A stretch of DNA of 64,000 bases from Candidatus Hermodarchaeota archaeon (GTDB lineage: Archaea; Asgardarchaeota; Hermodarchaeia; Hermodarchaeales; Hermodarchaeaceae), in contig JAEOTO010000006.1 in NCBI GenBank assembly GCA_016839805.1, forward strand, positions 1-64,000, written 5' to 3'. The notes beneath the pieces were generated by a model. That model worked only from the letters and a program-made list of their open reading frames with translations, searched no databases and was not told where the DNA came from. A program made the position numbers and the translations under genes. Positions 14,090 through 17,621 of this stretch are shown in pieces (the stretch's first letter is position 1; each line of letters opens with the position of its first letter).

Positions 14090-14194
14090 CTATGGTGGTG
14101 GAAGGCTGAGCAATAGTATTGCAACAATGGCACTACCAATAATCAATGACATGAAAAAAATAGCAAAAATAAGATTTCTATTCTTTCTCCTCAT
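14090..14194 (-). CDS. 34-aa single-TM microprotein (not in the ORF track)
   Basis: MRRKNRNLIFAIFFMSLIIGSAIVAILLLSLPPP*; ATG overlaps the ATPase stop (TGATG); basic N-terminus plus 24-residue hydrophobic stretch. Confidence 0.7.
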   Translation of the reverse strand: MRRKNRNLIFAIFFMSLIIGSAIVAILLLSLPPP

Positions 14195-15204
14195 CAGGAT
14201 TCACCATTTCTGGGGAGTATTCCCGTGCCCAATAGGCTGGAAAGCCGCTGTAAAGCAGGCAAACCTTGAATCTCGGTAGGAAATAAAGGAACTTCTGTGA
14301 TGATAAAGTCATCGTAAATATTGTGAATTTGAGCAATGTATTTTTCTTGCATAGCCTTACGTGACTTACAAAATTTGCAATCAGGCTTGTCAGGAAATAT
14401 CATATTAATGATTACATGGCTACTCGGTATTTCGAATTCATACAGAGTTTGTAACAGACGTTCTGTTTCCGAAACCGCCATGGCCTCAGGAATCATCACG
14501 ATAACAAAACTGGTGCGTGAAGGATCCCTCAACTCTCCACGCGATGCTGAAATGGTTTCTTTGAGTTTCTCCATTTGTTCAAGAGATTGATCTGGTTCCG
14601 AATCGCCACGTCCAAAAAGAGATTTCAAACGTCCAAACATATTACCGAAACGCATTCGAAGTTTGATAAGTTTACCAAAAAAACTATCCAACATTTCAGG
14701 GAGTCCTAAGAGTCGCAAAGTGTGACCAGTAGGGGCGGTATCAAACACAACCAAGTCGTATTCGCATTCTTGAATAAATTCAAGGACTTTAGAGAAAGCT
14801 AGCGCCTCATCCGCTCCGGGGGCAGTCATATCAGTGAAGTCCTCTAATCCCATCATTCCCCCTAAGGGCCCCATGTCTTCCGTTTCCTTTGATTGTGTCA
14901 TTTGCTGATATTGCTTAAAGGCTCTTCTAGGATCAATTTCCATGCCGTAGAGATTTTGCACTCCTTTAATGGGTATTACTTCTCCTCCACTTAGATCTTG
15001 AGCAAAACTATCACCTAGACTGTGTGCTGGGTCTGTACTAATGACAAGTGTTTCTCGGCCGTGTTCTGCAGCCCAAAGTGCTGATGCAGCAGCGTTACTT
15101 GTTTTGCCAACTCCTCCCTTGCCTCCAAAGAGAAGAAATCGGAGCGAATCCATTTCGAGTAATTTGATGAGGGTCATAAGAAGTGTAACTCCAATAGTAT
15201 GCAT
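14194..15204 (-). CDS. Get3/TRC40-type ArsA-family ATPase
   Basis: GKGGVGKT, STDPAH, PGADEA, DTAPTGHTLRLL, CKFC; single ATPase domain with Met/Phe-rich helical insert; probable start 15177. Confidence 0.9.
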   Translation of the reverse strand: MHTIGVTLLMTLIKLLEMDSLRFLLFGGKGGVGKTSNAAASALWAAEHGRETLVISTDPAHSLGDSFAQDLSGGEVIPIKGVQNLYGMEIDPRRAFKQYQQMTQSKETEDMGPLGGMMGLEDFTDMTAPGADEALAFSKVLEFIQECEYDLVVFDTAPTGHTLRLLGLPEMLDSFFGKLIKLRMRFGNMFGRLKSLFGRGDSEPDQSLEQMEKLKETISASRGELRDPSRTSFVIVMIPEAMAVSETERLLQTLYEFEIPSSHVIINMIFPDKPDCKFCKSRKAMQEKYIAQIHNIYDDFIITEVPLFPTEIQGLPALQRLSSLLGTGILPRNGES

Positions 15205-15243
15205 CGATGGGTAGATATCGCTTAAAGAGTTATCCCGTTAGAG

Positions 15244-15606
15244 TTAAGGTGGAAGGGGTATGATGAGTTGGCTAACTGCTAGCATCGTATAGAAAGTAAC
15301 TACAAATACAGCAATTAGGGTGACGATTCCGACTAATATTATTGAATATCGCATCCGAATTAAGCCCCCAATCAATCCCGTAAACATTATGATTAATATC
15401 GCGATAAAAGTGATTACCGCATCCCAGGATGGGAGAAGAGAGCTAATAGGTCCAACTACAACGAAAGGGTATATTCCATAACCTGATGCAATTAACAGAT
15501 AGCCTAAGGCTCCTCCAAAAACGATGAAAAGAATTGTTGCAAGCTTGTCTAACGGTTCATGCTCTCCTTCTTCTGAATCAAATTCTTCATGAATGTCTGT
15601 ATTCAT
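15244..15606 (-). CDS. Small 3-TM membrane protein with acidic N-terminus
   Basis: EEFDSEEGEHE followed by three hydrophobic helices. Confidence 0.8.
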   Translation of the reverse strand: MNTDIHEEFDSEEGEHEPLDKLATILFIVFGGALGYLLIASGYGIYPFVVVGPISSLLPSWDAVITFIAILIIMFTGLIGGLIRMRYSIILVGIVTLIAVFVVTFYTMLAVSQLIIPLPP

Positions 15607-15613
15607 ACTTTTC

Positions 15614-16327
15614 TTATTCTCCTGCTGGTTTATAGATTACGAGGCAGATGGGAACATTAGCTGTTGCCCAGTTTTGATATTTTCCCTCGTACTTTAAACC
15701 ATAATCCCGTTGTCCTTGATTGCCGAGAATAAGAAAGAGCGTGCGTGGACGAGCTTGTTTGTAGAAACCAAGAAGCCAGCGATCGGTTCGGTGAAGGAGC
15801 TTTTGTGCAAGTTCTAATGGTGGACGACTTGTATGTTCTTTATAGAGGGTGTCAAAATCGAGAAAATGGATGTAGAGGATATCTGATCGGTTTAGAAGTT
15901 TAGCGGTTTCGATGTAAGTTCGCATATCCGATTCAGCTGGACGAAAAGTCGCCTTTCCAGCGTTATTTTGTTGGTCTTCTCGGTCAACGACTACAGCTGT
16001 TTTTCCTTGTTGCACAAGATAGGAAAAAAGATGAAATCCATCATGAAGATTTCCGTGAGTCAGTTCATCGAAGACATTTGTGGCAAAACCATTGGGTGTA
16101 TCAAGAGTGAGAATAAGACGGGCTTCTTTGAGTAAGAATTGCGGTTTATGAAGTACCACTTCGAGTAATCCAAAATTGTCAAGATGAACGACGACTATGC
16201 GCTCTGTGGGGTCATAGGGGGATAGATCAATTCCTGTGACTAAACTTGTAGGTGTACCAACTCCTAATCGAGTTAGAATAGTAGCCGGCATTTGAGCCAA
16301 ATAACCTTCAATACTCTCGAATGTCAC
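15614..16327 (-). CDS. Degenerate alkaline-phosphatase-superfamily protein
   Basis: IVVVHLDNFG, LYIHFLDFDTL, DRWL, LFLILGNQG align with AlkP core motifs, but the His ligands are missing. Confidence 0.6.
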   Translation of the reverse strand: MTFESIEGYLAQMPATILTRLGVGTPTSLVTGIDLSPYDPTERIVVVHLDNFGLLEVVLHKPQFLLKEARLILTLDTPNGFATNVFDELTHGNLHDGFHLFSYLVQQGKTAVVVDREDQQNNAGKATFRPAESDMRTYIETAKLLNRSDILYIHFLDFDTLYKEHTSRPPLELAQKLLHRTDRWLLGFYKQARPRTLFLILGNQGQRDYGLKYEGKYQNWATANVPICLVIYKPAGE

Positions 16328-16433: not shown

Positions 16434-17621
16434 TTAAATGGGCGTCAACACGAGGATGAAGACAAAAGCCTGCATTAACAATATCATTGCGCCTTCGAAG
16501 ATATCGACTTTCTGATCATCGGTCATCGCGCGTTTTAAGAACCATAGTGATCCAGCGGCGGTAGCAAATTGGAGAAGCACTGCAGCATCCAAGGGAAGGG
16601 GGAGAAATATTGCAGCGCCACCCACAATAAGTAGCAGTACTTGGGTTGTGCCACCCAACGTGTTACCAATAGCAATGTTAGCTTTGCCTTTATTCGCGGC
16701 AATTAAAGCGATTCCATGCTCTGGAAGTGCTCCTGCCGCTCCAATCATTAGAGCCATAATTACAATACGTTGCGTTTCAATGATGCCTAATCCCGTCCAA
16801 GGAACAAAATTAAATGCGAGCTCAACTGCTTCTGAAAGAAGATATCCAGCAATAAAGATGCCCACAAATCCTAAAGTCGCTAATAATGCCGAGTTACGCT
16901 TTGAACGACGTGGCTTGGGGATTACCCTCTCAGTTGGTTTGGGTTTCTTAATAGCATAAACTGCATACAAAACATAAGAAAGAAGCATTAGGAATCCTAG
17001 AAGGGGTGGAAGGAAGATTAAGTCTGGTGTCAAACCATGAATGATATGATCAACATAAAAGAGGATACCAAATGCAAAGAGTAGGGTCATTGCGACAATA
17101 GTCCAACGAATGAGATCTGCATCATCTTCGACGACTTCACGAGGAACCTTTACCACACCAGTTTTTCGGGTAGAGATAACGACAACAATACCCAGGAGTA
17201 ATATGTTGAATCCGGCTGCCATTACGACGCTCAAAACAGCAATTTCAACTAGTTCCGGATTGCTAGTCACGACGCCCCGCCAAGCCGTGAGTCCACTGAT
17301 GACTGCTTCAGGGGTATTCGATGCTAAAGATGATAGAACTCCGATGACATAGGCACTAAGACCAGCAAAAGCTCCCAATGATTCAAGTCCATCAATGGCA
17401 AAGTGGGAGGCTCTAAACGTTAGCCAAAGTCCGAATGTCATTATAGCAATAATCAATATCAACACATTTTGAAACAGAAATAGTGCAAGAATCAAAAAAA
17501 CCAGAAGGATAAGTGCCACAAATCCCTCTCGTCGGGAAATATGGAAGGCTTTGTGAACTTCAACGGCACTCGAAATCATGTGTGCCTCTTCAGAGTGATT
17601 ATTGTCGGGCATGGATATCAA
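16434..17621 (-). CDS. Ca2+/cation antiporter (CaCA family)
   Basis: Two alpha-repeats SNTPE..FN and ALPE..GNTLG; about 11-12 TM. Confidence 0.85.
   Translation of the reverse strand: MISMPDNNHSEEAHMISSAVEVHKAFHISRREGFVALILLVFLILALFLFQNVLILIIAIMTFGLWLTFRASHFAIDGLESLGAFAGLSAYVIGVLSSLASNTPEAVISGLTAWRGVVTSNPELVEIAVLSVVMAAGFNILLLGIVVVISTRKTGVVKVPREVVEDDADLIRWTIVAMTLLFAFGILFYVDHIIHGLTPDLIFLPPLLGFLMLLSYVLYAVYAIKKPKPTERVIPKPRRSKRNSALLATLGFVGIFIAGYLLSEAVELAFNFVPWTGLGIIETQRIVIMALMIGAAGALPEHGIALIAANKGKANIAIGNTLGGTTQVLLLIVGGAAIFLPLPLDAAVLLQFATAAGSLWFLKRAMTDDQKVDIFEGAMILLMQAFVFILVLTPI

Follow-up and report, generated by a model that had tools for sequence, protein, structure and literature searches.

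Two small membrane protein families encoded beside get3 in Asgard archaea as candidate membrane-side partners of a Get3-type ATPase

Introduction

What meets a Get3-type ATPase at the archaeal membrane is the question raised by a short gene run in a 64,000-nucleotide (nt) stretch of DNA, hereafter the window, which is a contig of a metagenome-assembled genome (MAG) of the Hermod group of Asgard archaea (assembly G000, 87% complete). Get3 is an ATPase that covers the hydrophobic tail of tail-anchored proteins and brings these to the membrane. To our knowledge, the membrane docking site of archaeal Get3 has not been identified so far. In the window, the get3 gene is flanked by genes for two small membrane proteins, i.e., a 120-amino-acid (aa) protein with three transmembrane helices (3-TM protein) upstream and a 34-aa single-pass microprotein downstream, and the three co-oriented minus-strand open reading frames (ORFs) described in a first-pass annotation of the window were all found. 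The ATPase is of a known kind, the two small membrane proteins are new families, and both of their genes keep their place beside get3 through gene rearrangements. We tentatively read both small proteins as lineage-specific membrane-side partners that would contact Get3, a reading to which we assign a probability of roughly 0.45, i.e., slightly short of even.

Archaeal single-domain proteins bearing a CxxC motif and a groove have been classed as Get3-like, while the residues binding Get1, Get2 and Get4 are absent from them; archaeal Get3 binds tail-anchored proteins, and of four archaeal homologues under study, one brought them to membranes (PMC6593721). A literature search returned no description of the Asgard get3 neighbourhood treated here, and none is contained in Castillo and Saier 2010 (PMC2963123).

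Identity of the ATPase

The ATPase gene (14194..15177, minus strand) encodes 327 aa from its conserved start and matches PF02374 with an E-value of 4.5e-96. In the Get3 model TIGR00345 it reaches 312.8 bits against a cut-off of 135, covering profile positions 1-297 of 299, whereas the equivalog models for arsenite-related ArsA are missed by far (TIGR04291, 146.6 bits with 650 required; NF041417, 173 bits with 800 required). The P-loop GKGGVGKT (a deviant Walker A motif), DPAHS and DTAPTGH are all invariant in the Asgard alignment (A4), as are both cysteines of the CxxC motif, CKFC, in its 14 sequences. The protein holds three cysteines, namely this pair and one in IQECEY. Its Met/Phe-rich helical segments (GGMMGL; FFGKLIKLRMRFGNMFGRLKSLF) align to the helical subdomain of 3zq6, and the first-pass description of a single-domain ATPase with CxxC and Met/Phe-rich helices is thereby confirmed. 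The best sequence matches in the PDB are 5zme, 3zq6 (Get3 of M. thermautotrophicus, E 3e-82, end to end) and 3ug6 (Get3 of M. jannaschii); the closest solved relatives are thus Chlamydomonas ARSA1 and two archaeal Get3 proteins, followed by fungal and human Get3, with E. coli ArsA (1f48) behind all of these.

A FastTree phylogeny of 94 Get3/ArsA-like proteins, which included no eukaryotic sequences, places all Asgard sequences in one clade (21 rows, 97% local support), close to the Get3 group of methanogens and away from rows of the tandem ArsA type. The hallmarks of arsenite ArsA, i.e., two domains in tandem (A1-A2, about 580 aa), a cysteine triad for metalloid binding and an ars operon context, are missing: the protein has a single domain and, besides the CxxC pair, one cysteine, and none of the eight scanned neighbours is an ars gene, as had been stated before. 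An identity as arsenite ArsA is rejected by the equivalog scores, the ranking of PDB matches and the tree, and the earlier assignment to the Get3/TRC40 type holds, including under its own proposed check, since the protein groups in the Asgard clade instead of with ArsA. It is also the sole full-length member of its family in genome G000. Judged by sequence, the ATPase is a vertical Asgard orthologue of Get3, with putative cargo and zinc binding. It has in common with archaeal Get3 (3ZQ6, 3UG6) and eukaryotic Get3/TRC40 the single-domain deviant-Walker-A architecture, the CxxC pair, the Met/Phe-rich helical subdomain and the lack of an ars context. It differs from other Get3 proteins in its separate Asgard clade and in its gene neighbours, as the coupled microprotein occurs only here and in Thor, and the 3-TM gene flanks get3 only in four Asgard families.

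A microprotein at the get3 stop codon

Directly behind get3, a 34-aa ORF is found (14090..14194, minus strand). The stop codon TGA of get3 occupies 14196-14194 and the ATG of the peptide 14194-14192, with one base (A) common to both, which bears out the TGATG overlap noted in the first-pass annotation. The peptide consists of an N-terminal MRRKNRN, a 22-residue TM helix and a terminal LPPP, and a GGTGA motif lies 8 nt upstream of its ATG. This microprotein is kept at all 18 get3 3' ends with sequence in the Hermod family (34-39 aa), where it follows the pattern M[KR][KR]K..N, a TM helix with central LIIGS, and LP..P, starts with ATG, GTG, TTG or CTG (CTG in L186) and carries GGTGA 5-10 nt upstream. 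It also occurs in 30 of 30 fetched loci of family f6, here called Thor because NCBI names its Get3 proteins Thorarchaeota, with a length of 32-38 aa, the consensus MR[YR][AS]L[KR][RK]K...LFLAS...[KR]P and a start that lies within 8 nt, on either side, of the first base of the get3 stop codon. When the Thor profile was run against 51,769 six-frame segments of genome G000, the ORF downstream of get3 ranked first (E 0.0017; next 0.45), and the Hermod and Thor profiles align over all 32 columns without a gap (hhalign P 6.5e-6). No paralogue was detected in genome G000, Pfam scans gave no sequence relation to any named family, and among about 75 other Get3/ArsA loci a comparable downstream peptide is present in one, the Thor-like record L044. 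The 26 distinct Thor nucleotide sequences hold exactly 32 codons, with variable sites amounting to 26/18/31 of 31 by codon position and 40% of the pairwise codon differences being synonymous. With a substitution pattern of coding type, the microprotein is a real gene of 32-39 codons under purifying selection in Hermod and Thor.

Over the Hermod and Thor loci, the offset of the microprotein start from the get3 stop ranges between -8 and +15 nt, and all three reading frames are represented. This rejects a fusion of Get3 with a TM peptide by conserved frameshift or readthrough, which was considered as an explanation of the coupling. The microprotein starts at the get3 stop with a GGTGA/GGAG motif of its own, the predicted mechanism being reinitiation. 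A tail-anchor layout, i.e., an N-terminal tail that is predicted to be cytosolic (N-in) and has no signal peptide, a single TM helix within about 30 residues of the C-terminus and a short tail behind it, holds in all 48 orthologues, with a TM hydrophobicity (KD19) of 2.7-3.0 and an N-tail charge of +3 to +4. Of the earlier proposal of a 34-aa membrane peptide coupled to the ATPase, what stands is a real, tail-anchor-like microprotein in 48 of 48 Hermod and Thor loci.

A chain of 34 aa is complete before its TM helix leaves the ribosomal exit tunnel, which makes it too short for co-translational targeting, and the microprotein is thus predicted to insert post-translationally. Small subunits of membrane complexes and minimal tail-anchored proteins are known, e.g., Sec61-beta and the bacterial KdpF and CydX. 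Like these, the microprotein has its TM helix near the C-terminus and a tiny soluble part, and is encoded and made alongside a larger partner. It is, however, shorter (32-39 aa) than typical tail-anchored proteins and, in contrast to Sec61-beta, KdpF and CydX, coupled to a soluble targeting ATPase and not to a membrane complex.

The same features could describe a dedicated client of Get3, namely a minimal tail-anchored protein with a function of its own elsewhere, encoded next to its chaperone for immediate capture. The basic N-terminus, the very hydrophobic TM helix, the tail of 3-5 residues, the length below what co-translational targeting needs and the coupled start at every one of the 48 loci would all suit a client. 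Yet such a protein would have almost no extramembrane part with which to exert a function, chaperones serve many dispersed clients, so that coupling to a single one across Hermod and Thor would be unusual, and, as a rule, a small membrane protein whose gene is coupled to that of a larger protein serves the latter as a subunit or regulator. We therefore consider a pure client unlikely.

A three-helix membrane protein beside get3

The 3-TM protein (15244..15606, minus strand) has 42 homologues of 116-123 aa and 53-100% identity in a word-indexed search, all of them from Asgard MAGs. Among 1.8 billion cluster representatives, a profile search yielded only six hits and no more than two additional, distant members (112-113 aa). 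In a phylum survey of 301 Asgard genomes with a profile that included distant members, the family is present in 18 of 18 genomes of GTDB family f1, 4/5 of f7, 5/6 of f18 and 3/3 of f20; outside these four families, only weak profile matches within long ORFs were obtained. The names given to their Get3 proteins at NCBI assign f1 to Hermod and f7 and f18 to Jordarchaeia/Freyarchaeia (Jord and Frey; Ca. Freyarchaeum deiterrae, with a closed genome, is among them); f20 is without a specific name.

In the AlphaFold2 (AF2) model, which has a mean predicted local distance difference test score (pLDDT) of 65, helices span residues 21-43, 61-83 and 89-115, with a 17-residue loop between TM1 and TM2 that is predicted to lie outside. 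The sole basic residues between helices are found in the TM2-TM3 loop (RMRYS), and an N-in/C-out topology is accordingly expected from the positive-inside rule. Throughout the family, an acidic N-tail is followed by G-x-[YF]-P-[FW] after helix 1 and [GA]G-x-x-[RK]-x-[RQK]-Y after helix 2; the protein of the window displays GxYPF after TM1, GLIGGLIRMRYS where TM2 ends on the cytosolic side, and PLPP at its C-terminus. The net charge of the N-tail is -5 to -13 in the 42 Hermod sequences (median -8.5) and -3 to -6 in the distant members, in agreement with the earlier remark that the acidic N-terminus is unlike the basic segment of Get2. The 3-TM protein is the product of a real gene under purifying selection and belongs to a narrow, Asgard-restricted family without a database name.

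At every mapped locus, the 3-TM gene directly adjoins get3, in four arrangements with differing flanks. In Hermod, it is co-directional and upstream of get3 at a distance of 65-66 nt, with the gene of a 237-aa protein (see below) just upstream. In Jord, it is co-directional with get3 at 92 nt or about 600 nt, the 237-aa gene is divergent, and ThiC and oxidase genes form the flanks. In Frey, it is convergent and downstream of get3 at 35 nt, and the 237-aa gene, on the opposite side, is divergent. In f20, finally, it is again co-directional and upstream at 70 nt, while the genes of the 237-aa protein and an exchanger are 6-7 kb off, behind five unrelated genes. As a background, a small multi-TM ORF ending at most 250 nt upstream of get3 was found at one of 77 other Get3/ArsA loci (Asgard loci without the module, other archaea and bacteria). 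The synteny check proposed with the first-pass annotation, according to which lack of conservation would speak against a module, shows the neighbourhood conserved across lineages.

The 39-nt gap between 3-TM gene and ATPase reported earlier is correct for the longest get3 ORF, which opens with an ATG at 15204. Family similarity begins only at the ATG at 15177 (MTLIKLLE...), and with this conserved start the true gap is 66 nt, compared to 65 nt in relatives. The Pro runs seen at the ends of both small membrane proteins are likewise real as a cue but, as a specific tie between 3-TM protein and peptide, are rejected, for they reflect a habit of the whole genome: among ORFs of 120 aa or more in G000, at least two Pro in the last four residues occur in 18 of 234 (7.7%) that end in a TM helix versus 32 of 1810 (1.8%) others. 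Examples of such caps in this genome are ...IPLPP, ...PMVPP and ...PPPPP, and its EMC6-like protein also ends in ...ALPP. An origin of the peptide as a copy of the C-terminal helix in the 3-TM protein, to which a common MRYS and the Pro end might point, was rejected as well (hhalign P 0.2 for the Hermod peptide; a match of four residues only for Thor).

Relation to Get2, EMC6 and Get1

One EMC6-like protein, a predicted partner of the archaeal YidC/Ylp1, is present in each archaeal proteome examined, and GET2 plausibly derives from such an ancestor, while a Get2-like protein was not found in nine archaeal proteomes (PMC8675477). The first-pass annotation had accordingly suggested that the 3-TM protein may be a Get2/EMC6-like receptor. 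As a statement on homology, this finds no support. The protein has no Pfam match even at E <= 10, including the EMC6 (PF07019), EMC6_arch (PF19094) and GET2 models, and none in NCBIfam. Foldseek of its model against the PDB, which carries little weight at a pLDDT of 65, gave nothing better than E 3.8, and the ESM Atlas returned only unnamed clusters (best 0.88). With hhalign, the 3-TM family compared to 13 Asgard EMC6-like proteins gave P values of 0.024-0.87 and probabilities of at most 2%, with a reversed control at P 0.1. The recommended comparison with EMC6, Get2 and Oxa1-superfamily partners by fold and profile yielded no match, and homology to Get2, EMC6 or Get1 is not supported.

Some of the named models are of limited use in these genomes. 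PF19094 finds nothing in genome G000 and is nearly blind in Asgard archaea (4 of 301 genomes, none above the cut-off), GET2 (PF08690) has no match in G000 but is silent in control genomes too, and the same applies to Get1 (PF04420). EMC6-like genes were located instead with an f20 ORF that nearly reaches the EMC6_arch cut-off. With this query, a single gene was detected in 36 of 41 relatives and in 17 of 18 genomes of the Hermod family; in the genome of the window, this is G000:C22:107725-107985 (-), equivalent to L138:3199-3525 (-), with 108 aa and an E-value of 1.2e-8. It is situated separately, on contig 22, and the 3-TM gene is hence not the EMC6-like gene of the genome. The Ylp1/EMC3-like gene of G000 (PF01956, Oxa1 superfamily) lies on contig 9. 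Since EMC6_arch misses the EMC6-like gene of G000, Asgard EMC6-like proteins are probably under-annotated.

Could the 3-TM protein nonetheless be a very divergent EMC6-like paralogue, a true proto-Get2 specialised for Get3? Its size and expected N-in/C-out three-helix topology are those of EMC6-like proteins, a global alignment places a GG-basic motif in the TM2-TM3 loop of both families, the proposed descent of GET2 from an EMC6-like ancestor (PMC8675477) would offer a precedent, and an EMC6-like ORF abuts get3 in one Aenigmarchaeota record. The profile comparison just described, the null results with the Pfam models and Foldseek, an hmmsearch of a 19-sequence set in which the EMC6-like profile scores the 3-TM family at E 0.02 or worse, and the acidic N-tail, as opposed to the basic Get3-binding motif of Get2, make such a paralogy very improbable.

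Set against known systems, the 3-TM protein resembles Get2 in its N-in/C-out layout of three helices, as deduced from the AF2 model and the positive-inside rule, but is without detectable likeness in sequence or fold, and its N-tail is acidic where Get2 has a basic RERR-type motif. From Get1 it is set apart by the lack of a cytosolic coiled coil between TM1 and TM2, while an Oxa1-superfamily member, Ylp1, is encoded on another contig. Archaeal EMC6-like proteins (PF19094; Lokiarch_50810, MJ0606), which have been proposed as insertase partners (PMC8675477), are similar in having about 100 aa and three hydrophobic segments as well as in being archaeal, yet form a different family by profile comparison. 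In sum, homology of the 3-TM protein to Get2, EMC6 or Oxa1-superfamily partners is not supported by comparison of sequences and models, and an analogous receptor role is possible.

Neighbouring genes and inherited gene order

The genes described above form part of a close-set minus-strand run that comprises, from 5' to 3', the exchanger, the 237-aa protein, the 3-TM protein, get3, the 34-aa ORF, an rpoP-like zinc-ribbon gene and SUI1. The exchanger (16434..17621, minus strand) is a membrane protein of the Na+/Ca2+ exchanger family (PF01699, E 3.6e-12). The gene of the 237-aa protein (15614..16327, minus strand) ends 7 nt before the 3-TM gene. Its product, predicted to be cytosolic, has no Pfam match, but its AF2 model (pLDDT 84) suggests an alkaline-phosphatase-superfamily fold: all top structural matches with Foldseek and VIA-align belong to this superfamily, with phosphonoacetate hydrolase and phosphopentomutase at Z 13.6 (1ei6, 3m7v), further matches being iPGM, NPPs, sulfatases, LtaS and EptA, and in the ESM Atlas the protein stands beside short archaeal 'alkaline phosphatase family' clusters. 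The late metal motif reads G-N-Q-G in Hermod versus G-T-H-G in Frey and Jord, and the metal site of the 237-aa protein may hence be degenerate in the former. The family is present in 195 of 301 Asgard genomes. Its gene adjoins get3 in Hermod, Thor, Jord and Frey, being the divergent get3 neighbour in at least 20 of 23 Thor genomes with compared coordinates, and travels with the Na/Ca exchanger gene (paired in L005, L007, L012 and L039). In one Thor genome (G166), a 136-aa four-TM ORF without a Pfam match (L026:9225-9635 (+)) is situated in a 660-nt gap between the 237-aa gene and get3, a gap that measures 110-210 nt in other Thor genomes. The 237-aa protein belongs to the neighbourhood, but we list it outside the mechanism proposed below.

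These data also allow for an explanation without any shared function of get3 and its neighbours, in which the 3-TM protein would work with the 237-aa protein and the exchanger, e.g., as a membrane anchor, and get3 would be a bystander of inherited gene order. In Hermod, Jord and Frey, the 3-TM gene is framed by the 237-aa gene and get3, with a spacing to the 237-aa gene of only 7 nt in the window, which suits this explanation, as does Thor, where the 237-aa gene adjoins get3 and the 3-TM gene is absent; moreover, membrane-anchored enzymes of the alkaline phosphatase superfamily (EptA/EptC, LtaS, YejM/PbgA) are among the fold matches. In f20, however, the 3-TM gene has stayed 70 nt upstream of get3 with the 237-aa and exchanger genes 6-7 kb off, most of the 195 genomes with the 237-aa family are without a 3-TM homologue, and the peptide is coupled directly to the stop codon of get3. 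In our view, inherited gene order is a rather unlikely alternative.

Elsewhere, get3 has other neighbours. A homologue of translocon-associated protein beta (TRAP-beta, PF05753) directly adjoins get3 in a Heimdallarchaeota MAG (L042:2356-2958 (+)) and in Ca. Hodarchaeum mangrovi (L051:2222-2833 (-)), which gives Asgard Get3 a further membrane neighbour specific to a lineage. One record of Aenigmarchaeota type has a 117-aa 3-TM ORF that stops 1 nt short of get3 (L047:2620-2973 (+)); it matches the Asgard EMC6-like profile with an hhalign P of 2.9e-4 over 91 columns and Pfam EMC6_arch at E 0.0034, and three related records do not show this arrangement. The get3 module of Freyarchaeia has a cluster of ubiquitin, E1 (ThiF), E2 (UQ_con), JAB and RING genes at a distance of 1-5 kb (L012:1-2710, L016:1-4138). 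A profilin gene is located divergently upstream of get3 in Odinarchaeum (L022:12546-12905 (-)) and of the 3-TM/get3 pair in f20 (L039:11899-12306 (-)).

Membrane-side partners of Get3

Returning to the reading of both small proteins as membrane-side partners of Get3, the following arrangement can be envisaged. The 3-TM protein would expose its acidic N-tail and the conserved R-x-R-Y loop to the cytosol, and the microprotein a basic tail of 8-10 residues; together, they would form or tune a docking site for cargo-loaded Get3. From there, cargo might be passed to the separately encoded insertase of Ylp1 (EMC3/Get1-like) and the EMC6-like protein, and the microprotein may itself ride on Get3. In their proposed role as small membrane proteins meeting Get3 at the membrane, the two would be like Get1/Get2 (WRB/CAML), in an arrangement analogous, not homologous, to the latter. 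In favour of a partnership we count the Get3 identity of the ATPase, the four arrangements in which the 3-TM gene adjoins get3, the presence of the microprotein at 48 of 48 loci in two Asgard families, its TM hydrophobicity and the contrast in charge between the N-tail of the 3-TM protein (median -8.5) and that of the peptide (+3 to +4), and the small membrane proteins beside get3 in other archaea (TRAP-beta, EMC6-like) support the general idea of a partner.

Several observations weigh on the other side. No known insertase or receptor subunit resembles either small protein. Within the 301-genome survey, the 3-TM gene went undetected in the Thor, Odin, Heimdall and f9 genomes, and the microprotein is missing from the Jord, Frey, Odin and f20 loci; with this patchy distribution, neither can be a universal requirement of Asgard Get3. 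One Jordarchaeia genome (G024, 95% complete; L036, G024:C2:152500-169500) holds the 237-aa and get3 genes as a divergent pair 216 nt apart with the 3-TM gene nowhere, which looks like the loss in a single lineage. Furthermore, as the 3-TM gene of Hermod, Jord and Frey has get3 on one side and the 237-aa gene on the other, it is only the event in f20 that separates a gene that follows get3 from one that follows the 237-aa gene. Related genomes also inherit their gene order, and counts of genomes overstate independence.

In a more far-reaching version of the partner reading, the 3-TM protein and the microprotein would serve Get3 of Hermod, Thor, Jord and Frey as its receptor or adaptor at the membrane, a docking device with an origin separate from that of Get1/Get2 that delivers to the Ylp1/EMC6-like insertase. 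We regard this version as doubtful.

Implications

The two small, conserved and so far unannotated membrane proteins are concrete candidates for the docking step of archaeal Get3 that are cheap to test. At the same time, the microprotein illustrates that a gene of 32-39 codons present in dozens of genomes escapes annotation. Should the link to get3 be one of inherited gene order only, two new Asgard-restricted membrane protein families, distinct from Get2 and EMC6, would still have been gained. If, in turn, the receptor or adaptor version is true, these proteins would represent the first identified membrane end of the archaeal pathway for tail-anchored proteins.

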